A program made the translations under genes and the position numbers. A DNA stretch of 49,854 nt, taken from positions 1-49,854 of the forward strand of contig CALEHF010000390.1 of assembly GCA_937876125.1 (NCBI GenBank). Reading direction: 5' to 3'. Source of the stretch: an uncultured bacterium (lineage in GTDB: Bacteria; Planctomycetota; UBA8108; UBA1146). Positions 19 through 49,854 of this stretch are shown here, in pieces. Below the pieces are notes generated by a model. It had not been told where the DNA came from and made no database searches. It was given only the letters and a program-made list of their open reading frames with translations. Within the stretch, counting starts at the first letter, position 1. Each line of letters opens with the position of its first letter.

Positions 19-3000
19 CTACCGAATGATCGGCACGGTCACCGGCTCATCCACCAACTCCACCGATTGATGGATCGACCACCCTCCCGGGCCCCTCGAT
101 TCCACCGTGTATTGCACAATGCCCGGAGCGAGGTCGGGAATCACCAACGAGCTCCCCGTGATCGGAATCGTGACCTCGCCATCGACCTTCCACTGGTCGT
201 TCTTGAAAACCCAGCGCGGCAGCACCAAGACAGGATTTCGCGACAAGAGCACGCCGTCGTTGAAGGTAAACGACAGGTCGTAGGCGTTGATCTCGACTCG
301 GATCGGATCGGCGTGGAGCTCCGCGCGGGGGAGCTCTCTGGGGAGGGCGGAACCGAGCGCGAAGTCGATCGCGACCTCCGGCACCCTAGCCGGGGTCGCC
401 GAAACGAAGAGCGCACCCGCGCGCTTCGGCACTGGAATCTTCGCGACGCCCCCGACGATCCGTCCCGCACGCAAATGTTCGGCGTCGGTCGGATCATCGG
501 TGACCAGCACCCAGCCGCCAACGAGTCTCAGTCCATTCCTTCGGGCGATCACCGTGCGGATGTCGGCGTCGATCTGTAGCTCGAGCTCGCGAGCGTGCCC
601 CGGTCCAAGGCTCACTAGGGCGCTCGGAGTCACGATACCCAAGGGGAGGTCTTCGGGCCCCCACTCGAGCCGATAGCGCCCGGGACGGACATCTGAGTAG
701 TCGCGCGTCGTGCCCTCGACGACTTCGCCGAGATCGATGTCGCCCTCGACCGGGTCATCGGCGAGGTAGGTCAGTCGGAACCTATCCAGATCGACATCTT
801 CTCCGTCCCCATTTCGCACCGCGCGAATCCGGAGAGTGTTCCCCTCGCGCAGGAAGAGAGTGGGGGGCGGACCGTCGAGATCGACAATGTTGAGCACCGC
901 CGCGGTGTGGCCGGGGTGGCGCGCGACGAGAGAGAGTTCGGCATCGTCGCGAATGCCTTGGAGCTCGATGGAGAAGACTCCCCCTGCCCCACTCTTGACG
1001 CGACGCACGATGCGCGCGGTGTCGGGTTCTCGCCCGGGATAGCGGTACGCAGATCCCGGCTCGACGAGCATCACTTCGGCACCTGACACTCCGATGTCCC
1101 CCGCTTCGATGACAGCTCCGCGCAAGGTTCGAACTACTCCGAGCACGATCGGGGCGAGTTGATTGACCTCCGGCGCGAGGTTGGCGTCCACCGTCGTGCC
1201 GGTCGAGGTCCCCTCGTGCCGAAACTCGAAGACGTTCTCTCCGACCGACGCGCTGGGAGCGATGAACTCCCCACCGCTGAGCGCCACAAACTGGGACGAA
1301 CCGTAGCGGATCATCGTCCCCTCGGGCCAATCCGAACCCGCAGGAACCGCCACCGGTACGATCGTCAGGGTTCCATCGAGGGGTCGCTCCGAGGGGTCGT
1401 GCACGACACCGGTGATCGAGGTTTTCTCTCGGACGCGAAATGGCTCGGTGATCTCGCCGCCGACCGGGAGAGTCACCTCGACACCGACCCAGGGGACAGG
1501 CTCTTCGAGACCGAACTGAGACTCCAGACGCGGCCTGACCGAGATTCGATGCGCGAGGTCGCGGTACAGGGTCACGAGATAGACCCCGTCGCCGATCTCT
1601 TCAGCACGCAAGGTCTCTTCCTCGTCGATCGCAGGATCGAGTGCAGTGGAACTGACCGAGGCTCTCGAGACCGGCTCGCCTCCGTGATCGAGAACCGTCA
1701 GAGCGACCAGGTTGACCGCCGCGGGAGGGAGATCGATCACGCGATCGAGATCCTTCCGGTCTTCAGCGAACTTGAAAGGAAGCACGCCATCTTCGCGGCT
1801 AATGCTCTCCCAATGGAGCGAGTAGTCGCCGGTGAGGAAGAAGCGCATCTCGACGTGGGGCACGACGCCGGACCTCGATCCCACCCGGATCGAGAGCAAT
1901 TCTTGGTCTCGATTTCTTGCGGCTTCGCACCACACCTCCGGGGGGAGAGTGAGGCCCGCTCCTGGGAATCGGAAGAAAAACCGCCCGATCCGTGGATTCT
2001 CGGGCGAGAGCTGGGGAAATGTGAGGAGCCCGATCTCTTCTGGTAGTTGCGGCGGCGCGTGCGCAAAGAGCGCGTTATTCCCACCGACCAAGATCGCTTC
2101 GAAGCGATCGATGTCGTCGCGGTAGCGCTCAGATCCGAACGTGCCATCGGGCGCGAGAGGATAAGAGCGCTCGATCACCGGATCGTGCTCGTTTCCGCGG
2201 TAGCCACGCTCGATGATGCGGTATCGATCGGTTTCCCAGGGGGGGATCGAGGCGACCACTCCGCGCGTGACGACTCGACTCGGTTCGTTCGAGAAGGTGG
2301 GGATCGACAGGCCCTCGATGGAGGGGTCGTCGGAGTGACGGAACTCCCCGGAGGACTCATCGAGCCAAGGTCCCGTGACCCGAAAACGGTAGAAGCGCAC
2401 CGGATCGATCCCGCCGATCACCAGGCGAGAGCTCCCCTTGAGCGGGTAGAGGAAGCGCGTCGAGATCTCATCGTCTCCCGAGATCTCGAGGACCGCACCC
2501 TCGAGATCGGAGGGGGCGACGCCGGGAAGGATGACGGGGGTCGGCTCGCCGGGGGCGACCACCAGTGTTCCCAGGTCGAGATCCTCGGAGAGATCCGAGC
2601 GAGACGGAGTCCGCACCTCGAGGGGGAGATAGTCGCGCACGGCGACGAAGAACTTCTCCCCTCCTTCGGGCAACGCCCCGGTGAAGACCGCGCGACCTTC
2701 GGGAGTGAACTCGAGCGGAGTGAGATCGAGAGAGATCGTCACCTGCTCCGCGGGCACCGTGCGAAGTTCGCTTCCATCCACCTTCTCTACGAGTTCGAAA
2801 CTGAGGAGCGGCGACGCACGACCATTGAGGTGCAGTCGGTCGGCGACGCTCGGGACCATGAAGCCGGCGGAGTGACTGCGATACCGCGGATCGAGAACCA
2901 CGAGCGACCCCGCCTTCGGCAATTCGACGACATCAGGCGCTCCCGGGGGGCGATCGGAGACTCCCACGGTGAACCGACCCAACTCATCGGTTCGCACTCG

Positions 3001-4275
3001 AAATATTCGTCCATCTTCTGGGATCGATACTTCGATGGCAGTATCAGCGAGAAGGGTCTCGTCGGCGTCGACCAGCTCGAATGTTTCGATCGTCGGTGCG
3101 ATGACATGCAGCGAGACAATCGGTTCGTGCTCGCCGGTGGATGTGACTCCATCGTCGACAGGTGTCCCCGCCCAGAGGGGGCGCATGAGCCAACTCGGAA
3201 ACGGCACGATCGTCGGGTGAACGAGCGTCAAATGCTCCGTGCCTCGTACGGCGGAGATGCGGCCGGAGTCATCGGTGGTGCGATGTGAAATCCAGTTGTC
3301 TCCCTGCCTCGTGACGAGCGGACCATCTTCCGGAATGTACGGATCGGCCGCTTCGACGACACGGATGAGAGCGTTCGCGATCGGGGACTCATCCTCGAGG
3401 CGAAAATCGATGTCGGTGATCCAGGTGCGGCGCATCGACACTTCGACAAAGGGCCACGTGCCATCCAACGTTCGCAACTCCTCCGTCAAGGTCGTCACCG
3501 GCGCATAGCCGGGAGCATCGACCTCGATCCGGAGCCAGAGTCGCACGGCCCCCGGGGGACCGGGGGGCAGATCGAACCGCCCCGTATTGTCTGTGATCAC
3601 TACGGAAGGGGATACGACACCTGCGGCGCGGGGATCTCCCTCCGGCTGATCGCTGATCGTCACTCGAACGCGCGCGGCAGCGATCGGCCTTCCGTTCGCT
3701 CCGTCGATGACCATCCCCGCGGAGGCGCGCGCTCCATCGGTCTTAGAGTCTCGGGCACTGGCATCGCGCGATGCAGTGCCTCCGGGAGTTGCTTCCGTCG
3801 CGCGCGTACGAGGAACCGTCGCCCCACCGGGAATCATCGTGCCGTCGATGAGAACCCCGCCCGTCCCGACGATGATTTTCTCACCGCGAATCTCGATGCT
3901 CGAACCCGCCGGGATGCGAAACGGACCGAAGTCGGTGTCGAGCTTCGCCCTGACCTGCATCGATCCATCGTCGAGAATGGGGAGTCCACCTTCGATGCGG
4001 AACTCCGCGCCGGGCGCCATCTCGACCTCGAGCCCGATCTGCTCGAGCGAGATCCCCGCGTGGGTGCGGAACCCGCCATCCTCGGTGCGCTCGAGATCAC
4101 CCTCCCGATACTGCCACCCTTCGACGGTGATCAGTCCGGGAACCCCGGCGTCGACCGTCGGCTGGAGGGATTCGGTCCCGGCGGTCGAGTCTTTGCCCCC
4201 TTGCTCGAAGACGAGGAAGCCCAAGACCCCGGCGAGTGCCAAGAACCCCAAAAGGCAAAGGGTGCGCAGTGTCAT
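19..4275 (-). CDS. Large membrane-anchored protein with multiple carboxypeptidase-regulatory-like (beta-sandwich) domains
   Basis: 1418-aa ORF with an N-terminal hydrophobic helix and repeated motifs such as GMVIDGANGRPIAAARV, ITDNTGRF, TVLDHGGEPVSRASV, GVVHDPSERPL and GAVIEAGDIGVSGAEV. Acidic, Pro/Gly-rich extracytoplasmic composition. Confidence 0.75.
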   Translation of the reverse strand: MTLRTLCLLGFLALAGVLGFLVFEQGGKDSTAGTESLQPTVDAGVPGLITVEGWQYREGDLERTEDGGFRTHAGISLEQIGLEVEMAPGAEFRIEGGLPILDDGSMQVRAKLDTDFGPFRIPAGSSIEIRGEKIIVGTGGVLIDGTMIPGGATVPRTRATEATPGGTASRDASARDSKTDGARASAGMVIDGANGRPIAAARVRVTISDQPEGDPRAAGVVSPSVVITDNTGRFDLPPGPPGAVRLWLRIEVDAPGYAPVTTLTEELRTLDGTWPFVEVSMRRTWITDIDFRLEDESPIANALIRVVEAADPYIPEDGPLVTRQGDNWISHRTTDDSGRISAVRGTEHLTLVHPTIVPFPSWLMRPLWAGTPVDDGVTSTGEHEPIVSLHVIAPTIETFELVDADETLLADTAIEVSIPEDGRIFRVRTDELGRFTVGVSDRPPGAPDVVELPKAGSLVVLDPRYRSHSAGFMVPSVADRLHLNGRASPLLSFELVEKVDGSELRTVPAEQVTISLDLTPLEFTPEGRAVFTGALPEGGEKFFVAVRDYLPLEVRTPSRSDLSEDLDLGTLVVAPGEPTPVILPGVAPSDLEGAVLEISGDDEISTRFLYPLKGSSRLVIGGIDPVRFYRFRVTGPWLDESSGEFRHSDDPSIEGLSIPTFSNEPSRVVTRGVVASIPPWETDRYRIIERGYRGNEHDPVIERSYPLAPDGTFGSERYRDDIDRFEAILVGGNNALFAHAPPQLPEEIGLLTFPQLSPENPRIGRFFFRFPGAGLTLPPEVWCEAARNRDQELLSIRVGSRSGVVPHVEMRFFLTGDYSLHWESISREDGVLPFKFAEDRKDLDRVIDLPPAAVNLVALTVLDHGGEPVSRASVSSTALDPAIDEEETLRAEEIGDGVYLVTLYRDLAHRISVRPRLESQFGLEEPVPWVGVEVTLPVGGEITEPFRVREKTSITGVVHDPSERPLDGTLTIVPVAVPAGSDWPEGTMIRYGSSQFVALSGGEFIAPSASVGENVFEFRHEGTSTGTTVDANLAPEVNQLAPIVLGVVRTLRGAVIEAGDIGVSGAEVMLVEPGSAYRYPGREPDTARIVRRVKSGAGGVFSIELQGIRDDAELSLVARHPGHTAAVLNIVDLDGPPPTLFLREGNTLRIRAVRNGDGEDVDLDRFRLTYLADDPVEGDIDLGEVVEGTTRDYSDVRPGRYRLEWGPEDLPLGIVTPSALVSLGPGHARELELQIDADIRTVIARRNGLRLVGGWVLVTDDPTDAEHLRAGRIVGGVAKIPVPKRAGALFVSATPARVPEVAIDFALGSALPRELPRAELHADPIRVEINAYDLSFTFNDGVLLSRNPVLVLPRWVFKNDQWKVDGEVTIPITGSSLVIPDLAPGIVQYTVESRGPGGWSIHQSVELVDEPVTVPIIR

Positions 4276-24422: not shown

Positions 24423-25582
24423 ATCCGTCCGTCGGGTGAGTTTCTCGTTCTGACCGATGGAACTCATCCGGAAAGCGCTTCGAGCAGGTCGTCGATCCAA
24501 GAGTTCGCCAGGTCGATGCATACTCTGAGATCCGCCGCGCTGCCGACGCGACACCATCGACCGAAATCAGCGGCTTGGCATTCGACAACGAGGGGTACCT
24601 GTTCATTTCCGACGCAGGAGCGGGAGCCTCGCCGTCTCACATCACGCGGATGCGCGACAACGACGCGGATGGATACTGCAGTGCCGCGGCGGGGGAAGTG
24701 AACGTGATCTACTCCACGGCGACCACGACCGGGTCGACGCTGACCGATATCACGGGGCTCGCCATTCGCGAGGATGGTTTCCTCATCGCCTCGGACGTGA
24801 ACTCGAACAACATGCATCGCTTGAGCGACTCAGGGATCGATGGCGATGCCAACGACGCGGGTGAACAACCGTTCTTCTTCATCTCCGATTCCACCGGGGT
24901 CATTCTCGGAGATTCCGAGAGCATCGCGTTCGCGCCTGGCGGCGCTGTCGTCGTCATGTACGTCAATCCGAGCTCGCCTACCGACTCGATCTTCCGCTTG
25001 CGCGACAACAACGGCAACGGCTTCATGAGCAATCCCGCCGAGGTGAACACGTTCTGGGGCTCGGCTTAGGCGAATGGGATCATCCCCGATGATGCGCGAC
25101 GGATCGCGGTCAATGAAATCGGTGCGTTGTTCGTCGCCGACCGTGGTACCGACCGCATCGTTCGTCTCCAGGATCTCGACAACAACGGCGATGCCAATGG
25201 GAGCGGCGAGGCGATGGTCTTCCTCGACAACTCGAACCTCTCCGGAGTGACGCTCGGAGATCCCTACGGGCTCGCCCTAGAACTCCCCGCGCCGCCTCCT
25301 TCCGGGCCATTCTTCACTCGCGGCGACGCGAATACCGATGGTGGGTTCAACATCGCGGACGCCATCTTCATTCTCGGTGTGCTGTTCAGCGGGAACCCGG
25401 CGGGCACCTGCGAAGACGCGAACGACGCGAATGACGACGGTTCGCTCAACATTGCAGATGCGATTTTTGCGCTGGGCGCACTCTTCGGCGGCGGCGGAAA
25501 TCTGCCGGCACCGTTCCCGGGGTGTGGACTCGACCCGACTGTCGACGCGCTGGGCTGCGCGGGTTTCGCCGCTTGTCCGTGA
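24423..25582 (+). pseudogene. Disrupted beta-propeller (NHL-like blades with DxDxDG loops) plus C-terminal dockerin-like gene
   Basis: ORFs 24575-25069 and 25127-25582 are in the same frame, separated by one TAG (25067-25069), and the 19 intervening codons continue the blade pattern. A further blade remnant (IRPSGEFLVLTDG, 24423-24461) lies in another frame. No signal peptide or good start was found. Confidence 0.75.
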
Positions 25583-40777: not shown

Positions 40778-41770
40778 TCACGCCTCTTCCCCGCACTTCC
40801 CATGCAACTCGGCCGCAACCGTCACGAGTCTCTCGCGCTGCTCGAGCTTTGCCAACGGCTCCGGGGGCAGTCGGCGAGCGCCGTTGGCCGCCCCCCACAC
40901 CGCACCCGCCATGGCGCCGATGGTGTCGACATCGCCACCCACCGACGCGATGAAGTTCTGCATCTCGAGGAACGGCTCTTCTGCGAAGCGCAGAGCGCAG
41001 TAGATCGCAGTCACACACGATTCCGTCGTCGCGATGCCATTGCCGAGGTGTTGTCGGATCAGTTGGGCGGACGGCGCGTCGCCACTATCGAACCACTGTT
41101 TCGCGAGCTCGAGGCGCGAACGGAACGGATCCTTCGCGCAATTTTCTTGAGGGCTGTCTTTCGGAGCACTGTCTTTCGGAGCGCTGTCTTCCGGAGAACT
41201 GTCTTCCAGAACACAGTGCCGCGTCGCGGCCGCGAGCACTGCGTCTCGAGACTCACCCAGCGCGGCGGACGCCGTCGACGCGGCAACGAGAACAGCGCCG
41301 ACTTCGCCGAGCGGGTGCGCATGGGTGACCCGGGCCGCCCGGCGTGCGGCGTCTGCCAACTCGCGAGGCCTCGAAGCAAAGAACAGCCCGATGGGAGCCG
41401 CTCGCATCGCGCCGCCATTTCCGTAGGACCCGTCTGGGAAGACCGAGCGGTTCGCCTCCTGCCAATCGGCGCCGCCCTTGATGCATTTGAGGAGCTTCGC
41501 CGCTCCCGGGCCATACCCCCAACTCCACCGGTAGCTGTCGGCGAATCTCCGTGCCAGGTCATCCGGATCGATCCGTCCGTGCTCTGTCAACGACTCGGCG
41601 ACGTCCAGAGACATCTGTGTGTCGTCGGTCCAACGCATCTCGCCTTGACGGGTTCTGCCGATGAGTCGCCAGACCAGACGCTCGAGTGGTCCCCCCTCGA
41701 GAGGCGCGCCGAGCGCGTCACCGAGCGCGAGCCCGAGCAAGCAACCTTCGAATCGGTCGCGGTCGATCAT
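40778..41770 (-). CDS. ADP-ribosylglycohydrolase (DraG/ARH family)
   Basis: GCLLGLALGDALGAP, WTDDTQM, GNGGAMRAAP, TH, GGDVDTIGAMAGA; start at ATG 41770; contains a degenerate 15-bp repeat at 41154-41207. Confidence 0.93.
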   Translation of the reverse strand: MIDRDRFEGCLLGLALGDALGAPLEGGPLERLVWRLIGRTRQGEMRWTDDTQMSLDVAESLTEHGRIDPDDLARRFADSYRWSWGYGPGAAKLLKCIKGGADWQEANRSVFPDGSYGNGGAMRAAPIGLFFASRPRELADAARRAARVTHAHPLGEVGAVLVAASTASAALGESRDAVLAAATRHCVLEDSSPEDSAPKDSAPKDSPQENCAKDPFRSRLELAKQWFDSGDAPSAQLIRQHLGNGIATTESCVTAIYCALRFAEEPFLEMQNFIASVGGDVDTIGAMAGAVWGAANGARRLPPEPLAKLEQRERLVTVAAELHGKCGEEA

Positions 41771-42236
41771 CGGGGGCACCTTCCACCAGGACACCCTAAC
41801 TGTCACGAGGCACGATGCGCGCCCCTTCGACCTGGGTCCCATCTCCAAAGCCTCCGCAGCGCAATTCGCACTCGAGCCACCCCTTCGCGAACTGCCAGCC
41901 CTACTTCACCTCTGCCTCGGAGAGTCCGAGCACCGCTCGTCCGCGCCGCTCATTCTTCGTTGCGGAGACTCCCTTTAGAACTCCGCTAAGCTCCCTTTAA
42001 CAAACGACTTGTGGCTTCTCATCTAGCCGCTCGAGCCCCGGCGGGCCAGAAATCTTGCGAACCGCTGTTCTGTTTCTCGGGCGGCGCCCCTTCACCAGGC
42101 AGATCGATCGACGTTGTCGGTCGCAACTCAGCCACACCACTTCGAAAGGGAAGTCGCCATGCAAGTTTCACTGATCCCGTCCGCCGACTCGTCCTGTGTC
42201 CAAGCCAACCCGAACTCCAATGAAATGCGGTGTCCC

Positions 42237-43649
42237 ATGTCCTTCATTCGCCTCACATCCCTCGCGGTCGCTCTCTTGCTCGCTTCGGTCATCTCCGGTT
42301 GTGGCGGCGGTGGTGGTGGTGGCGGTGGCGCAGCTGCCAGCGCACAGTCGAATCTCACCGGCAAGTGGCAGGTCTCCTACACCGAAGTGGGGAACGATTG
42401 CGGAAAGCAGCTCGAGTCCGGTACCGCCGAAATGTCGATCCGCCAGAACGGCGATGTCGTTGATATGGAGATGGTCAATGGCCAAGGCGGCATGGACCGT
42501 TTCGTCGGCTTCCGGAGCGGCGCAACCATCGAGCTGTTCGGTGCCCAGGTGGACTCGAACCGGTCGGCAAGTTTTGACTTCAGCCTCACCGTGTCCGCCG
42601 CGGGCAACTCATTCGTCGGGAGCATGTTCCAAATGGAGGATGAGATGAGCGGTATCTGCAATCGTGAGAACACATTGAGCGCAGTGCGTATCGGAGCCTT
42701 GGATCCTCCCGCACCGCCGACCCACGACTTCACTGAGCTCATGGATGTCTTCGCGAATTCGCTGATCAGTTACTGCGGCGGCGGGGTCGAAGGTGGCACG
42801 GTCACGATCGACTTCGTGCAAGCGGGGAACGACGTCGTGATCGACATTCTGGGTCGGGATGACGAAGTTGCCTTCGGGACCGTGAGTGGAGATACGATCC
42901 GCATTCACGTGGAGACGGAAGAAGAGAATGGTCTGGAGATCCGGATCGGCACTCTGACGGCGACCCCGGACGGGTTCCTCGTAGGAGAAGTGGCCACTCT
43001 CGTCGACGCCGCAGAGCTCTGTGGCGGGATCGAACAGTGGGTCGTGATCCCCGCCCTGGCAGACGAAGTTGCCACCCTGGGCACGACGTTCGGAAGCGTT
43101 GCCGGTGCAACCGACGAATTCACGGGGAGTTGCTGGGTCGATACTCTTCCCGATCGCGCCTACCACTTCACCGCCCCGGAGTCGGGCCTCTACCAGATCG
43201 ACACCTACGGATCCGAGACCAACGACACCGTCCTGTTCGTGCTCGACGCCGCAGGCAACGAAATCGCATGCAATGACCAGGCAGGTGGCACAAGCCACTC
43301 CGAACTCCTCCTCGACCTGGCTGCAGGCGACATGATCGTCATTGTGATCGACGTCTTCACCGCCTCGCAGAGCGAAGAGTTCCAACTCAACATCACTCAC
43401 GTGCTCCAGAGCGTGTCCTCGGACACCTACGTCAATCTAGAGATCGTGAACCTGTCGGGTGCCACCCTTGAGGTGTTCTGGGTGAACTTCGCGGGACTGG
43501 AGCTTCATTACGGAACTCTCATGGACGGTGATTCCTACATGCAGGGCACCTATGCGACTCACCCGTGGCGCTTCCGCACACTCGCCGGGGAACTCCTCGA
43601 GACCTACGTCGCGACGACGGACGCGAACCAAACGGTGACGATCAACTAG
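42237..43649 (+). CDS. Lipoprotein with beta-rich core, PPC-like domain and C-terminal VHL-beta-like domain
   Basis: Lipobox ISGC followed by poly-Gly; PPC-like YHFTAP..GLYQIDTYGS..DTVLFV..IACND; C-terminal VNLSGATLEVFWVNFAG..YGTL..TYATHPWRFR. Alternative start ATG 42159 has an RBS. Confidence 0.8.
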   Translation: MSFIRLTSLAVALLLASVISGCGGGGGGGGGAAASAQSNLTGKWQVSYTEVGNDCGKQLESGTAEMSIRQNGDVVDMEMVNGQGGMDRFVGFRSGATIELFGAQVDSNRSASFDFSLTVSAAGNSFVGSMFQMEDEMSGICNRENTLSAVRIGALDPPAPPTHDFTELMDVFANSLISYCGGGVEGGTVTIDFVQAGNDVVIDILGRDDEVAFGTVSGDTIRIHVETEEENGLEIRIGTLTATPDGFLVGEVATLVDAAELCGGIEQWVVIPALADEVATLGTTFGSVAGATDEFTGSCWVDTLPDRAYHFTAPESGLYQIDTYGSETNDTVLFVLDAAGNEIACNDQAGGTSHSELLLDLAAGDMIVIVIDVFTASQSEEFQLNITHVLQSVSSDTYVNLEIVNLSGATLEVFWVNFAGLELHYGTLMDGDSYMQGTYATHPWRFRTLAGELLETYVATTDANQTVTIN

Positions 43650-43660
43650 GACTCACGAGT

Positions 43661-43804
43661 ATCGCGTGCAATGACCAGGCGGGTGGAACGAGTCACTCCA
43701 AACTGTTCCTCGACCTGTCCGCGGGAGAAACGGTGATCATCGTGATCGACGTCTACTCGACTTGGGACAGCCTGGAGTTCCAGCTGAATATCGGCACCAA
43801 CTAG
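43661..43804 (+). pseudogene. Orphan 3' half of a PPC-like repeat with its own stop codon
   Basis: IACNDQAGGTSHSKLFLDLSAGETVIIVIDVY...EFQLNIGTN*, out of frame with the upstream gene and without a start; collinear with 45773-45916. Confidence 0.85.
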
Positions 43805-43839
43805 GCCTAGCAGCCTGCTCACTCTGTTTGACCATGTTT

Positions 43840-43887
43840 CTCGTCGCTTCCCGCCGGCATCGGCCGCGGGGGGCGACGAGTTTTCTT
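43840..43887 (+). terminator. Intrinsic terminator, copy 1
   Basis: ctcgtcgcttcccgc...gcggggggcgacgag-ttttctt; identical to 45945-45992. Confidence 0.8.
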
Positions 43888-44095
43888 GTGCACTTTCTGC
43901 GGACCTCGGCCGAGCCGCTGATCTCTCGCGATCGCTCTCGCGGCCGTGGCGAGTCGACTCCGTTACCTACGTCTTGGCCAACACTTACGACGATCTCAAC
44001 CGGTGCAGTTCGGTTCTCCCTTCAAACCCCCTTCTTGGTGTGTGGCGCGAACGGTCGTGCCACAGAACGAAACCACCTCGAAGGGAGTGTCTTCC

Positions 44096-45916
44096 ATGCA
44101 ACTCGTCAAACTCACCACCACGGGCGTCTCCGGTCTCCGCACTTGTGCCCTCGCCATCGCTCTCCTGGTCGCCAGCTTTGCGGCCCCCACCGTCGCTGAC
44201 GCTCAGCACGCCTTTACCCGCGGCGACATCAATCAGGACTCGAGCGTCTCCATCGTCGATGCGATCTCGCTCCTCTCCTACCTTTTTGCTGGTCTCCCCG
44301 GTCAGGTTCCGGCCTGCAACGATGCAGCTGACGTCAACGACGACGGCCATATCAGCCTCTCCGACCCGATTGTGCTCCTCACCAACCTGTTCGGCGGCGG
44401 CGGTCCCCTGCCCGCACCGACAAATGGGGAATGCGGAGCCGACCCGACTGCGGACGCACTCGGATGCGACAACTTCGCCGGCTGCACGTCTCTCACCGGC
44501 AAGTGGCAGCTCTCCTACACCGAAGTGGGCAACGATTGCGGGAAGCCACTCGAGTCCGGTACCACCGAAGTGATGATCCGCCAGAACGGCGATGTCATAG
44601 ACTTGGAGATTGGGGATCAAGGTGGCGTGAGCCGTTACGTCGGTTTCCAGAACGGCACAACCATCGAACTGTTCGGTGCGCAGGTTGCCTCGAACTACTC
44701 CTCGAGCATGAACTTCCTCCTCACCGTGTCCGCGGCGGGCAACTCAATCGTCGGGAGCGCGTTCCAGCTTCAAGAGGAGCCCATCGGTATCTGCAATCAT
44801 GAGTACACACTGAACGCAAATCGTATCGGAGACTTGGATCCTCCGGCGCCGCCGACCCACGACTTCACCGCGCTCATGGATGTCTCCGCGAATCCGCTGA
44901 TCAGTTACTGCGGCGGCGGAGCGTCGGGTGGCACGGTCACGATCGACTTCGCGCAGTCGGGGAACAACGTCGCGATCGAGATTCCTGGTCTCGTTGACGT
45001 CATTGCTTTCGGAACCGTGAGTGGAGACACGCTCCGCATTCATGTGGAGACCGAAGAAGCTGGCGGTCGCGAGATTCGGATCGGCACCCTGACGGCGACC
45101 CCGAACGGTTTCCTCACAGGAGAAGTGTCCACCCTCGTCGACGCCGCCACTGGGCTCTGCGGTGGGATTGAAGAGTGGATCGCTGTGCCCCCCACGACAG
45201 GGCCCCCCACGGTCAACGAAGTTGCCACTCTGGGCACGACGTTCGGAAGCGTTGCCGGCGCAACCGACAATTTCACGGGGAGCTGCTGGGTCGACACTCT
45301 TCCCGATCGCGCCTACCAGTTCACTGCGCCGGGAGCGGGCCTCTACCAGATCGACACCTACGGATCCGTGACCGACGACACCGTCCTGTTCGTGCTCGAC
45401 GCCGCAGGCAACGAAATCGCATGCAATGACCAGGCGGGCGGAACGGGACACTCCGAACTCGTCCTCGACCTGGCTGCAGGCGACATGATCGTCATTGTGA
45501 TCGACGTCTACACCTCCTGGCAGAGCGAAGAGTTCCAGCTCAACATCAATCATGCCTTGTCCCCGCTGGCGGACGAATTCGCGGCACTCGGCTCCATGAC
45601 CGGTAGTGTCGCCGGCGAAGACGACGACTACAGCGGGTCTTGCTGGGCCGACACGCTTCCCGATCGCGCCTGCCAATTCAGCGCGCCGGAGTCGAACACC
45701 TACCGCATTGACACGTTCGGCTCGCAGACACTCGACACCGTCCTGTTCGTGCTCGACTCCGCAGGCAACGAGATCGCCTGCAATGACCAGGCGGGTGGAA
45801 CAGGTCACTCCGAACTGTTCCTCAACTTGGCCGCGGGAGAAATGGTGATCATCGTGATCGACGTCTACACCCCCTGGCAGAGCGAAGAGTTCCAGCTCAA
45901 CATCAGCACCAACTAG
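44096..45916 (+). CDS. Secreted protein with N-terminal dockerin-like domain, the same beta-rich core and two PPC-like domains
   Basis: RBS AAGGGAG, ATG 44096, signal peptide (ADA-Q), FTRGDINQD...DVNDDG...CGADPTADALGC, core paralogous to 42353-43400, and two PPC-like repeats. Confidence 0.85.
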   Translation: MQLVKLTTTGVSGLRTCALAIALLVASFAAPTVADAQHAFTRGDINQDSSVSIVDAISLLSYLFAGLPGQVPACNDAADVNDDGHISLSDPIVLLTNLFGGGGPLPAPTNGECGADPTADALGCDNFAGCTSLTGKWQLSYTEVGNDCGKPLESGTTEVMIRQNGDVIDLEIGDQGGVSRYVGFQNGTTIELFGAQVASNYSSSMNFLLTVSAAGNSIVGSAFQLQEEPIGICNHEYTLNANRIGDLDPPAPPTHDFTALMDVSANPLISYCGGGASGGTVTIDFAQSGNNVAIEIPGLVDVIAFGTVSGDTLRIHVETEEAGGREIRIGTLTATPNGFLTGEVSTLVDAATGLCGGIEEWIAVPPTTGPPTVNEVATLGTTFGSVAGATDNFTGSCWVDTLPDRAYQFTAPGAGLYQIDTYGSVTDDTVLFVLDAAGNEIACNDQAGGTGHSELVLDLAAGDMIVIVIDVYTSWQSEEFQLNINHALSPLADEFAALGSMTGSVAGEDDDYSGSCWADTLPDRACQFSAPESNTYRIDTFGSQTLDTVLFVLDSAGNEIACNDQAGGTGHSELFLNLAAGEMVIIVIDVYTPWQSEEFQLNISTN

Positions 45917-45944
45917 CAGCCTTCTCGCTCTCTTGCCTCAGACT

Positions 45945-45992
45945 CTCGTCGCTTCCCGCCGGCATCGGCCGCGGGGGGCGACGAGTTTTCTT
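45945..45992 (+). terminator. Intrinsic terminator, copy 2
   Basis: 48-bp identity with 43840-43887. Confidence 0.8.
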
Positions 45993-46024
45993 ATGCACTC
46001 GTCTCGCGTGTTCGGCTGGTTCGT

Positions 46025-49000
46025 TCAGGGGGTGGTCGTGAGCTTGGGAAGCGCGAGCTCGATCCAGGCGGCAGCCGGGGACTCGGAGGGCGAAAAACCG
46101 AGTAGCTCTTCGATCGAGTCGCTGGCTGCTTCTGCGAAGAGTTGCAGTGTTGTCGCCAGTCCGACCGACTCGGTCAGAGTGTCGGGGCCTGCTCGCCGGA
46201 TCAAGTCCCGCGCTTCTTCGCCCGCCTCTGCCGAGAGCGAGTGGCCCTCGTAGTGCTTCGCGCGCATGCGCACAGTCGCCTCGAGAAGCTGGATTTCGAG
46301 TTCTGTGGTCTGGCCAAGTTCGAGCTGTGCTGCGAGCTGCACGAGCGGCTGTGAATCGCCCAGTAGATCTTCGAGAAGAGCCGCCCGTGCCTCGAATGCC
46401 CGTCGACGAATGGGCGCCGCAATCGCCGGAGACACCTCGCGCGCATCTCGAAGCTCGCATCGGGCGCAGTCATCCTCCCCCGCAAGCCACTCGATTCCGG
46501 CTCGACTCAGCCGATACTCAGCCTCAGCTGCACGATCCGACATTTCCGCGCACAGAGCTGCAGCGCGTTCCGCTGCTGGGCGGGCTGCGTCCAGGTTCCC
46601 GAGCAAGGCTTCGACCTCCGAGAGGTTGTAGTAGCAGCGGGAGAGAGCGCGGCGATTTTGGACCTTTTGAAATGCTGACACCGCATCGATGTAGCCCGAG
46701 CGCGCTGCCTCGAGGTCCCCGCGCTTGAAGGCGACGTTCGAGAGCCACACCCGGGCATGGGTCTGGAAGTCCAGATTGTCGAGTTCGCACCCGATCGACT
46801 CCGTGATCCGAAAGCAGCGCTCCGCCTCGTCGAGTCGATTCTCTTCGTAGTGCAGGATCCCAAGATTGTTTGTGGCTCGGGCCTCCCCGCTCCGATCACT
46901 CCACGCCACATATCTGCGTCGATTTTCCTCCCAGAGTTCCCGCGCTCGGTCGCGGTCTCCGAGACGACGAAATGCTGTCGCGAGGTTCTGCACCGCATCG
47001 GCCTGAATTCGTTCGAGTTCGGGAGCGCGCGCGAGAACTCGCGCTTGTTGAGCGAGCTCGCAAACCTGCTCGAATTGCCCTCTTCGGAACGCGATCTCGC
47101 TCAGTTGGACCAGGGAACTCGCCTTCGATCGGACGTCGTCGAGTTGCTCGGCGAGTTCGAAGGCCGCGCGAATCGACGCCTCCGCTCGCTCGAGCCTTCC
47201 GCACGCAGTATGGACACGCCCCTCGAGCGCCAGCCACTCGAGCTCTCGTCGTGGATCACTCCAACCTATCTGATCCACGATCTCGGTCACCCGCGCCGCC
47301 AGCTGATCCGCGTCGGCCGCCTGACGGAGCCGAACGTGCTGCTCGAGCGCCTTCATCAGCGGAGGCAATGCAGAAGAGAAGTCGCCGAGCTCGAGGAGCC
47401 GTAGCCCCAGCTCCTCGGCGTAGCGCGGTTCGGAAAAGAGATCCTGCAAACACTTCGAGACTTCGAGCCGACGCCGTCGGGCTTGACGACTTCCTCGAAG
47501 TTCGATTTGCCGCACCGCGATCGTCGCAAATGACGGATTCTGAAATCGATACTGCGTGAGCTCTGGATCGGTGGGCAACAAGATGCCGAGAGATTCCAGC
47601 TGGTCGAGGCCATCGTCGAGCGTACTCCCCTCCTCGAAGAGCGCTTCGAGAACGGAGATCGGAATCTCGGTGCCGAGAAGACCTGCCGTCTCGAAGATCG
47701 CGCGCCCTTCGTCGGTCATCTCATCAACCCTTAGTGCCAAGAGATCTACATACTGGCTCGGCATTGCGGAGAGCAGCGCTTGCGGGGTCACCTCCGGCCG
47801 CACGCTCCACGATGTCCCAATGAGTCGGAAGAAGCCCTGGCGGCCGTCCACATTTCGGGAAAGCGCCTCGATCATCTCCTCGATCATCCCCAGGTGTCCA
47901 CCACTTCGAGTGTGGATCGCGTCGGCGAGTCCCGGGGAGTAATCGAGGTGATTCGAACCGGGGTAGCGAAGCGCGAGCAAGGCGTCGATCTCCTCGGCCG
48001 TGATCGAAGTCATCACCGTTCGTTGCAATCGAGGACGAGGGGCAACAAGTCGGTCGAGAACCGTGGGTTCGGCTCGCCCATGGCTCGGAAGCTCGGCCAT
48101 CGTTCCCACGACCGCAAATGGGATGTGTTCCTCGTGGCATCGTTCCAGGATGGCGAGGAGTAGCTCGAGGGACGCAGGATCCGCGTGCTCGAGATCGTCG
48201 ACGAGCGCTACGCAAGGCACAGACTGAGTGAGGCTCGCAATCAGTCGATACCACCGATACTGCTGGGTCGGTGAGTCCTCGGGTTCGAGCTCCTGCCCGA
48301 GGAGCTGTGAGAGGAAGAACTCCACGCTAGGCGAGCCGCGACCGAAGAGCTCGCCAAGACGTCGGCGTGCTGTCTTCTCGAGCAATGCGTCGCGCTGCTC
48401 CGACTCGACGATGCAGAGCAAACTCCTCAGCAAGTCGTGGACGAGTTTGAGTCGCTGCCCGACACCGCTTCGAGCATTCGCTCTCAAAACTCGAATTCCG
48501 AGGCCTCGAGCCACGAGGTCCACGTGGTCCAACGAGACAGTCCGCCCCGTTCCGGCCGCGCCGACGATCAGGTGCAACACACCCGAGTCACTGGCGATCG
48601 AAGCGATACTCGACTCGAGGGACTCCCACTCTCGCCGCGGAAGGACCGGCCGGTTGTGTGCAGAGTCTTCGACCGTGATCCGCGAGGGGACAGACTGGAT
48701 GGTTCGCTGCTCTCCGTCGACACGAACTCGAATCTCTGGCAGCCGACGAGACCCTGACTGAGTCTGGGTCAGAATCACGAGCTGTTCGCGAGTGGTCTCC
48801 GCGGGCAACTCGAGCAAGCCGAGCGGGGGGGAAATCTGGTCCCAACCATCACCCGTGGCGACTTCGACCTCGAACTCGGCGGAGGCGTGGCCCCCGTTCT
48901 CGAAGAACAATCGAAGTTGGACGGGATCGCCAACCCGAACCGATCGCTGCAGTGGAGACGCTTCAACTCTCTGCTGGCCCGAGGCGGGAAGCCCTTCGAA

Positions 49001-49854
49001 CGATCCATCCGTCAGCGCAGGGATTGCGAGATGCAGGCTCTCGAGGCGCTGCGCCGGGTCCTTCTCGAAACAAAGCTTCAGCAGCTGAACGACAGACTCC
49101 GGGGTTTCGCGGGGGAGCCGTTCGAACGGTGGCGGCACGTGCATGATCTTGCCCACAAGCAGACCATCATTCGGCGCATCAAACGCTCGAGTTCCCGTCA
49201 GTGCTTCGAACAGGAGACAACCGAAGGCCCAAACGTCCGCCGACTTTCGGCTCCGGCCGCCGCGGAGAGTCTCCGGACTCATGTAGCTCGGCGTTCCCAT
49301 GACCGGGCTCTGCGTACGATCGCTCGGTTGTTCATCGCCGATCGAACGGGCGAGGCCGAAATCGAGGACCTTCACCTTGCCATCGATGCGCACCATGACG
49401 TTCGAGGGACTCAGATCACGGTGCGCCACACCTTGGTCGTGGGCGGCTGCAAGGGCATCGGCGATCTGGCTCGCGATGGCGGTTGCATCCTGGATCTCGA
49501 GGCGACCATTCTTGAGACGAGCCCTCAGGGTCTCGCCTTCGACGTGCTCGAGGATGAGGAAGTGCCCCTCTTCCGCACGTTCGAAGCTGTAGATCGCGCC
49601 GATGTTCGGGTGGTGGAGAGAAGCGAGGAGTTGCGCTTCGCGTCGAAAGCGCTCGATCCGCAATTGGTCGCGATGTTGATCCCAGTGGATCGATTTGATG
49701 GCGACTCGGCGATCGAGCTGGGTGTCGTAGCCTTCGTAGACCACGCCCATTCCTCCGCGCCCGAGTTCACGAACAATTTCGTAGTGGCGGATCGTCTTCG
49801 GGGTCTCTGGGGCCGGGGTCTCTGGGGCCGGGGTCTCTGGGGCCGGGGTACCAG
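46025..49854 (-). CDS. Ser/Thr protein kinase-Ig-like-AAA ATPase-TPR protein (5' end outside the window)
   Basis: The frame is open to the window edge (...KTIRHYEIVRELGRGGMGVVY). VAIK, HRDLSPSN, DFG, GTPSYMSPE, DVWAFG; P-loop GAAGTGRT; Walker B LVDD; TPRs (NNLGILHY, YNLSEV). Confidence 0.92.
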   Translation of the reverse strand, partial: GTPAPETPAPETPAPETPKTIRHYEIVRELGRGGMGVVYEGYDTQLDRRVAIKSIHWDQHRDQLRIERFRREAQLLASLHHPNIGAIYSFERAEEGHFLILEHVEGETLRARLKNGRLEIQDATAIASQIADALAAAHDQGVAHRDLSPSNVMVRIDGKVKVLDFGLARSIGDEQPSDRTQSPVMGTPSYMSPETLRGGRSRKSADVWAFGCLLFEALTGTRAFDAPNDGLLVGKIMHVPPPFERLPRETPESVVQLLKLCFEKDPAQRLESLHLAIPALTDGSFEGLPASGQQRVEASPLQRSVRVGDPVQLRLFFENGGHASAEFEVEVATGDGWDQISPPLGLLELPAETTREQLVILTQTQSGSRRLPEIRVRVDGEQRTIQSVPSRITVEDSAHNRPVLPRREWESLESSIASIASDSGVLHLIVGAAGTGRTVSLDHVDLVARGLGIRVLRANARSGVGQRLKLVHDLLRSLLCIVESEQRDALLEKTARRRLGELFGRGSPSVEFFLSQLLGQELEPEDSPTQQYRWYRLIASLTQSVPCVALVDDLEHADPASLELLLAILERCHEEHIPFAVVGTMAELPSHGRAEPTVLDRLVAPRPRLQRTVMTSITAEEIDALLALRYPGSNHLDYSPGLADAIHTRSGGHLGMIEEMIEALSRNVDGRQGFFRLIGTSWSVRPEVTPQALLSAMPSQYVDLLALRVDEMTDEGRAIFETAGLLGTEIPISVLEALFEEGSTLDDGLDQLESLGILLPTDPELTQYRFQNPSFATIAVRQIELRGSRQARRRRLEVSKCLQDLFSEPRYAEELGLRLLELGDFSSALPPLMKALEQHVRLRQAADADQLAARVTEIVDQIGWSDPRRELEWLALEGRVHTACGRLERAEASIRAAFELAEQLDDVRSKASSLVQLSEIAFRRGQFEQVCELAQQARVLARAPELERIQADAVQNLATAFRRLGDRDRARELWEENRRRYVAWSDRSGEARATNNLGILHYEENRLDEAERCFRITESIGCELDNLDFQTHARVWLSNVAFKRGDLEAARSGYIDAVSAFQKVQNRRALSRCYYNLSEVEALLGNLDAARPAAERAAALCAEMSDRAAEAEYRLSRAGIEWLAGEDDCARCELRDAREVSPAIAAPIRRRAFEARAALLEDLLGDSQPLVQLAAQLELGQTTELEIQLLEATVRMRAKHYEGHSLSAEAGEEARDLIRRAGPDTLTESVGLATTLQLFAEAASDSIEELLGFSPSESPAAAWIELALPKLTTTP
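49799..49849. repeat. 15-bp tandem repeat x3.4 encoding (TPAPE)n
   Basis: Perfect copies of cggggtctctggggc. Confidence 0.95.

Follow-up and report, generated by a model that had tools for sequence, protein, structure and literature searches.

The 49,854-nt contig CALEHF010000390.1 (assembly GCA_937876125.1) from an uncultured planctomycete, referred to below as the window, carries two adjacent genes on its forward strand, gene 1 (from ATG 42237, or alternatively ATG 42159, to 43649) and gene 2 (44096–45916), which share a long internal core and differ at both protein ends. A start-less fragment of a PPC domain (43661–43804), called here the orphan, lies between them. The data indicate that this locus very probably arose by a species-specific tandem duplication of one exported-protein gene, extending from its leader to its intrinsic terminator, which was followed by domain-level rearrangements that left a relic behind. 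The first-pass annotation of the window had read the same arrangement as a surface-variation system with a silent donor cassette. The modular organization of the surface proteins that it described, with one core, two N-terminal address modules, and two C-terminal domains, was borne out, while the variation system was not supported.

The two genes share a core and carry different ends

The locus was compared using blastn with itself and with the whole draft genome to which it belongs (5.41 Mb in 475 contigs, 91% complete). The data showed that positions 42353–43399 and 44491–45552 are 84.1% identical over 1067 columns, which confirmed the core of about 1.05 kb, and that the similarity begins abruptly in both units at TCTCACCGGCAAGTGGCAG. 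With lax gap costs a single colinear alignment was obtained between 42353–43894 and 44491–45999. It contained one unalike block (43401–43660 versus 45554–45772), for which the global alignment score had a z value of -0.27 and was reached by 183 of 300 shuffles, and a diverged stretch of 35 nt between the orphan similarity and the hairpin region. A 23-nt PPC word was found four times in the window and in none of 100 shuffles, and four direct copies of the 3′ half of the PPC domain, with 70%–86% identity, are located within 2.7 kb. All the repeats at the locus are far beyond chance.

The synonymous divergence (dS) between the barrel regions of the two cores, which are described below, was 0.35–0.36, with a ratio of nonsynonymous to synonymous divergence (omega) of 0.46–0.52, while the corresponding values for the first PPC domain (PPC1) were 0.19 and 0.29. 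Hence, both genes are coding and have diverged, and the omega of the barrels fits diverging paralogs. The dS between PPC1 and the second PPC domain (PPC2) was 0.63, which indicates that the internal PPC duplication is older. Partial gene conversion or a stronger constraint on codons might account for the two PPC1 copies (43065–43400 and 45218–45553; 91% nucleotide identity in part) being more similar to each other than the barrels seem to be. The differences between the two genes amounted to 32% in loops and 25% in strands (p = 0.35), and thus were not concentrated in the loops.

Gene 1 encodes 470 amino acids from ATG 42237 or 496 from ATG 42159. When it is read from 42237, the translation contains MSFIRLTSLAVALLLASVISGC followed by a Gly run, and the n-region, the h-region, and the lipobox ISGC together form a putative lipoprotein-type signal (42237–42302), recognized by reading of the translation; the lipobox consensus is [LVI][ASTVI][GAS]C. 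The Gly-rich linker extends up to 42353, and is followed by barrel A (42354–42719), barrel B (42720–43064), PPC1 (43065–43400), and a VHL-beta-like tail (43401–43646) that ends with a TAG stop. The tail matched Pfam PF01847 (VHL beta) with 23.1 bits when the whole open reading frame (ORF) was used and with 27.8 bits when it was used alone (gathering cut-off 21); the match covers profile positions 2–59 of 82 and maps to 43407–43580. Gene 1 on its own scored 17.4 bits against the Pfam PPC model, under the cut-off of 25.9, but its PPC1 domain is the counterpart of gene 2 PPC1 at 91% identity. The start of gene 1 is ambiguous, as the conserved leader favors ATG 42159, which places 26 residues ahead of the signal, while the canonical lipoprotein signal starts at ATG 42237. 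Both choices occur in public protein sets (P0002 with 470 and P0016 with 496 amino acids).

Gene 2 encodes 606 amino acids (P0001 in public protein sets). It begins with a Sec-type signal (about 44096–44203, ending in VADA/Q), which is followed by a type I dockerin with two DxNxD loops (44222–44365), a Cys-rich linker, barrel A (44492–44854), barrel B (44855–45217), PPC1 (45218–45553), and PPC2 (about 45575–45913) with its TAG stop. The dockerin matched Pfam PF00404 (Dockerin_1) with 25.4 bits (gathering cut-off 22.9), and its two Ca-binding repeat loops were read in the translation as DINQDSSVSIVD and DVNDDGHISLSD. The model PF04151 for PPC, the pre-peptidase C-terminal domain, was matched in two stretches with 37.1 bits (gathering cut-off 25.9). 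The different N-termini and C-termini that had been described for the two products are therefore both found.

The unalike block of gene 1 (43401–43660), defined by the points at which the similarity stops and resumes, consists of the VHL-like domain, its stop, and a few further bases, and it occupies the place that the 5′ part of PPC2 has in unit 2 (45554–45772). We rejected an origin of the block from a PPC2 half by divergence, as its DNA score against the counterpart in unit 2 and the protein scores of the VHL-like tail against either PPC half were within those of shuffles. Elsewhere the genome has a single VHL-beta-like domain (locus L030, G000:C379:6493-9657, ORF 799–3165), which is 31% identical to that of gene 1 and immediately precedes a DPP-IV N-terminal region and an S9 prolyl-oligopeptidase domain. 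The peptidase context is a hint at proline-containing peptides as the ligands of bacterial VHL-like domains.

The orphan fragment and the ends of the duplicated unit

The orphan (43661–43804, forward strand) consists of 47 codons followed by TAG and has no start codon. It is 86% identical over 144 nt to the 3′ end of gene 2 PPC2 (45773–45916), and only 70%–74% identical to the ends of the PPC1 domains. Its frame is free of stops, in agreement with the first-pass description, and lies one base behind the frame of gene 1. The orphan differs from the end of gene 2 PPC2 at 20 positions. With the two PPC1 copies as the outgroup, 14 of these changes were assigned to the orphan branch and two to the gene 2 branch, while four could not be polarized. 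With this asymmetry (binomial p = 0.004), the orphan does not have the pattern of changes expected under coding-type constraint. The 14 orphan-branch changes altered the amino acid in eight codons and were silent in two, and motifs kept in the three coding copies, for example QSEEF, were altered in the orphan alone. In simulations of neutral decay with 14–18 random substitutions all 47 codons stayed open in 56%–63% of cases, and the open frame of the orphan is therefore uninformative. By rough arithmetic, a neutral divergence per lineage of about 0.16–0.18 (half of a dS of 0.31–0.36) would give 22–25 changes in 141 nt, and the 14–18 changes observed suggest that constraint on the orphan has been absent during the greater part, though not the whole, of the period after the duplication.

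Both units begin with related leaders, as had also been noted before. Leader 1 (42136–42164, forward strand) is composed of ACCACTTCGAAAGGGAAG, 5 nt, and ATGCAA with the ATG at 42159, and leader 2 (44072–44101, forward strand) of ACCACCTCGAAGGGAG, 8 nt, and ATGCAA with the ATG at 44096. The two leaders are homologous, and we placed the left boundary of the duplicated unit at leader 1. Each of the two sequences is unique in the 5.41-Mb genome at zero mismatches; the leader 1 sequence stays unique at up to two mismatches, and ACCACCTCGAAGGGAG at one mismatch has one unrelated site.

At their right ends both units have a hairpin followed by a U-tract downstream from the stop, so that both have the features of candidate intrinsic (Rho-independent) terminators. 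Terminator 1 (43839–43894, forward strand) is a hairpin of 18 pairs that has a single bulge, a loop of 4 nt, and UUUUCUU behind it, and terminator 2 (45944–45999, forward strand; repeat family D6) has the same hairpin and U-tract. The 48-bp identity reported earlier was reproduced, with 48 of 48 matches between 43839–43886 and 45944–45991, and 55 of 56 positions agree over the longer stretch. The predicted RNA folding energy was -35.6 kcal/mol for terminator 1 (z = -6.25; none of 200 shuffles was equally stable) and -36.0 kcal/mol for terminator 2 (z = -5.22). A simple promoter and terminator scanner gave no promoters and no terminators at the locus; it probably missed the two hairpins because of the bulge. 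The near-identity of the terminators could plausibly be explained by the fact that nearly every base is paired and that both would still be in use, while a recent gene conversion between them is a possible alternative. No Rfam match was found in 41500–46500.

A proposed history of the locus

In the history that we propose, one unit of about 1.8–1.9 kb, reaching from leader to terminator, would have been copied in tandem. The ancestral gene would have encoded a signal, two tandem eight-stranded barrels, PPC1, and PPC2; the presence of both PPC domains in the ancestor follows from the relic resembling the end of gene 2 PPC2 more than it does the PPC1 ends. After the duplication the N-terminal address regions would have diverged, giving a lipoprotein signal with a Gly linker in one copy and a Sec signal with a type I dockerin in the other. 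The first of these arrangements, a lipoprotein signal, a Gly linker, and barrels, also occurs in the distant relative P0005, and the signal-plus-dockerin module occurs in at least 147 further places of the genome. In gene 1 about 218 nt of the first part of PPC2 would then have been replaced by 260 nt of unrelated DNA coding for the VHL-beta-like domain with its own stop. The 3′ half of PPC2, no longer translated, would have persisted downstream of the new stop and ahead of the old terminator, where it has been decaying.

The searches for further copies are consistent with a single, species-specific event. In the draft genome blastn with 42001–46100 found no other copy of the core, the orphan, or the terminator, and only dockerin-like stretches were matched outside the locus. 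In a protein search of the same genome (150 of 350 candidates scored), the locus, beyond its dockerin, matched only itself. The core was present in none of 40 related genomes, five of which had any match, either in the PPC part only or weak. A scan of species genomes with a single protein gave five loci, all dockerin-only, the best of them in metagenome-assembled genomes (MAGs) of Planctomycetota. Scanning metagenome contigs with the core alignment gave 57 pattern hits, none of which was confirmed, and a degenerate form of the 23-nt PPC word had no matches in metagenome contigs.

Several observations weigh against this history or against parts of it. The pairwise omega between the orphan and PPC2 was 0.38, not 1, and of the 14 changes in the orphan only two affect the second position of a codon. 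If PPC1 and PPC2 had undergone gene conversion inside gene 2, this would mimic the asymmetry of 14 to 2 changes, and the lower dS of PPC1 (0.19, compared with 0.35 in the barrels) raises the possibility that the copies have exchanged some sequence. The searches for a donor of the VHL-like segment found none: tblastn and blastn searches of the draft genome had as their best match the 31% identical domain on contig C379, the DNA hits being at chance level, and a word-index search returned only the query itself among 50 candidates. As the draft is 91% complete and repeats often stay unassembled, another cassette could be missing from it. Finally, assembly contigs drop rare variants, so the contig comparison described below is blind to junction variants of low frequency.

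Alternative explanations of the locus

The data were also considered in the light of programmed cassette-type surface variation, in which the orphan would serve as a silent donor and swap the C-terminal tip through recombination with the PPC repeats. The four direct copies of the PPC 3′ half, the open frame of the orphan, and the conserved ends of the units could be explained in this way. However, the genome has one 144-nt fragment instead of several silent donor cassettes, none of the 28 largest ORFs in the window encodes a recombinase, a transposase, or a reverse transcriptase, and the lineage-specific changes have accumulated mainly on the orphan, whose open frame is what more than half of the neutral simulations retained. 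The mismatches between the orphan and PPC2 involve all bases and are not adenine-specific, unlike those produced by a diversity-generating retroelement. The public sequencing runs (four runs from three studies dated 2017, 2024, and 2025) were compared as assembly contigs, and, within the limit that contigs drop rare variants, they contained no alternative joints, indels, or loose ends. Moreover, as the orphan is a direct repeat, its recombination with gene 1 PPC1, which had been suggested to exchange the VHL tip for the orphan end, would irreversibly delete the VHL tail rather than switch it. Programmed variation is thus very unlikely and already close to refuted, and the locus shows no sign of switching. 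The outcome that had been named beforehand as contradicting it, a one-off duplication with a domain insertion and a decaying orphan, is the one observed.

Expression of the orphan, either as a fusion to gene 1 by -1 ribosomal frameshifting within 43565–43649 or on its own as a small protein starting at GTG 43565, would be in line with its frame being open from 43565, overlapping the end of gene 1 one base behind its frame, and lying upstream of the terminator. On the other hand, no canonical X XXY YYZ slippery heptamer was seen by eye in 43565–43649 in the frame of gene 1, half of a PPC sandwich would be unlikely to fold, and it is the orphan alone that departs from conserved residues such as those of QSEEF. 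The public products have 470 and 496 amino acids, with none longer among the two cluster members listed, and we regard the expression of the orphan as extremely unlikely. Even harder to credit is an assembly artifact, either two strain alleles placed in tandem or a chimeric join at the VHL segment, which a fragmented draft and repeats that invite mis-joins might produce. The junction at 42353 was bridged at 100% identity by contigs of X1, X2, and X3, that at 43400 by X1 and X2, that at 43661 by X1, X2, and X5, and that at 44491 by X1 and X3. A single X1 contig spans 43327–44361, which includes the end of gene 1 PPC1, the VHL domain, the orphan, the terminator, the spacer, and the gene 2 dockerin. 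X1 may be the source sample, and hence not independent, but contigs of X2 and X3 cover the same junctions with no differences, and both proteins are present on 7–9 contigs in public collections, the longest of 53 kb. Tandem duplication followed by domain-level rearrangement thus remains the explanation that we favor.

The core consists of two predicted β-barrels of a small family

The part shared by the two genes ahead of PPC1 consists of two tandem modules of about 115 amino acids, each with the motif LxGxW...C...xQxG...GxxSG...C, in which the two Cys residues are 83–89 residues apart. Sequence searches of Pfam, NCBIfam, and the Protein Data Bank (PDB) with the core gave no family match, the one PDB hit being due to chance (E = 0.81), and NCBIfam had no families for four proteins. 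The structure of the core was predicted with AlphaFold2 (AF2). Using a 14-row alignment, the mean predicted local distance difference test score (pLDDT) was 85.9 and each module had eight strands, while a single-sequence prediction of gene 2 reached a pLDDT of 33.4. In comparisons with VIA-align the best match was the Cap15 barrel (Z = 12.9, root mean square deviation 1.9, 94 residues aligned), and the other matches were designed barrels (Z = 11.7–12.8), avidins (9.5–10.4), and NHBA, hemophilin, and HpuA (7.2–9.2), as well as the TbpB barrel. Foldseek found double-barrel proteins and TbpB at E values of 2e-4 to 1e-3; the whole-model TM-scores were low (0.24–0.33) because the two barrels differ in orientation. 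An Atlas search gave weak leads, the best at 0.88, with calycin, avidin, and lipocalin clusters at 0.76–0.80. The core modules are thus predicted to be calycin-like eight-stranded β-barrels, which is a statement about the fold only. TbpB C-lobe, HpuA, NHBA, hemophilin, avidins, and Cap15 have this fold in common with the core and no sequence relation to it, and several of them are lipoproteins, as gene 1 appears to be; this likeness to barrels of the TbpB and avidin type demonstrates no function.

Among 5.8 billion proteins the core matched only P0001 and P0002, which are the proteins of the window itself. A full HMMER search of 1.84 billion representatives (E <= 0.001) returned five proteins, P0001, P0002, P0003, P0004, and P0005. 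P0003 was rejected as a spurious short-repeat hit, while P0004 and P0005 are true but distant relatives. A subsequent profile search added ten members (P0006–P0015), and the profile E values of the family ranged from 1e-36 to 1e-119. P0004 and P0006–P0015 have a signal, two barrels, and, where complete, a PEP-CTERM-like tail, the Pfam match to PEP-CTERM being weak (E = 0.1), while P0005, a lipoprotein, has three barrels behind a Gly linker. All of them come from metagenomes. These proteins have the same modules of about 115 amino acids, the same motif, and the same Cys spacing as the core of the window, although the identity is only 21%–25%. Unlike gene 1 and gene 2, they are without PPC, dockerin, and VHL parts, and their anchor is a C-terminal PEP-CTERM or, in P0005, that of a lipoprotein. 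The family is small and unnamed, with no Pfam or NCBIfam model covering it.

Predicted roles of the products and the dockerins of the genome

Judged from their sequences, the two products are probably diverging exported paralogs that bind ligands or peptides. Their export is suggested by the signals, the conserved Cys pair in each barrel, the PPC domains, and the relatives with PEP-CTERM tails; PPC domains are typical of secreted proteins. The predicted barrel fold is that of binders of small ligands and peptides. The gene 1 product would probably be tethered to the membrane by a lipid, and the gene 2 product would probably be docked on a cohesin-like domain encoded elsewhere in the genome.

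Cohesin-like matches (PF00963) were found in eight places of the genome, six of them over the cut-off, and these domains are possible partners of its dockerins. They are located on contigs C361, C381, C273, C85, C139, C349, C282, and C103 (loci L026–L029), and some of them, for example on C381, C85, and C349, share an open frame with a dockerin match. The N-terminus of gene 2, with its signal and dockerin, was matched with 37%–56% identity in the at least 147 further places mentioned above (150 of 350 candidates scored), and the N-terminal dockerin family of this genome is unusually large. One further match of this kind is in the window (25295–25579, within ORF 25127–25582).

A bolder possibility, which we consider unlikely, is that the N-terminus is a portable address tag, whose exchange placed the same double barrel at two stations of a large non-cellulosomal dockerin/cohesin network as a capture-and-relay pair. 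If it were true, the gene 1 protein would be lipid-anchored with a VHL-like tip that binds proline peptides, the gene 2 protein would sit on a cohesin scaffold, and the pair would resemble the systems of a surface lipoprotein and a hemophore.

The genes that flank the locus encode an ADP-ribosylglycohydrolase and a Ser/Thr protein kinase. The former had no match at E <= 1e-20 in four relatives. The kinase gene is the convergent downstream neighbor (46025–49750, reverse strand); its product has 1241 amino acids and includes TPR repeats and an ATPase domain of the AAA_16 type, and no link between it and the locus was seen.

Comparison with known systems

A surface-variation system at this locus would have been new, but the evidence favors the ordinary duplication of a gene and shuffling of its domains. 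The locus offers a clean natural case in which a whole transcription unit was duplicated and both protein ends were exchanged, and its datable relic fixes the order of events. It also shows that an unnamed double β-barrel module occurs with three anchors, PEP-CTERM, lipoprotein, and dockerin. The unusually large N-terminal dockerin set of the genome, together with its cohesin-like domains, may merit a study of its own.

A non-cellulosomal dockerin/cohesin "planctosome" has been proposed for freshwater Planctomycetes, which is itself a hypothesis and concerns peptidases of another family (PMC6461901). As in that proposal, a signal peptide is directly followed by a dockerin on non-cellulolytic proteins, and the genome that carries the locus also encodes cohesin-like domains. 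A further likeness is that the best outside matches of the gene 2 dockerin are in MAGs of Planctomycetota.

Antigenic variation by gene conversion is known from Neisseria pilE/pilS, Borrelia vlsE, and Treponema tprK, which have many intact silent cassettes and variant junctions in populations. The locus described here resembles them in that an expressed surface-protein gene adjoins a start-less homologous fragment and that direct repeats could pair. It differs from them in having one fragment with no further copies found in the draft genome, in the excess of amino-acid-changing substitutions in it, and in the uniform contigs of the four runs. The likeness to tandem paralogs with domain shuffling and a pseudogene fragment is closer, as it includes the duplication from leader to terminator, a dS of about 0.35, the replacement of a block, and a leftover non-coding piece. 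Nothing essential distinguishes the locus from ordinary tandem paralogs, and what is unusual about it is the exchange at both ends together with the retention of a terminator identical at 48 of 48 positions.

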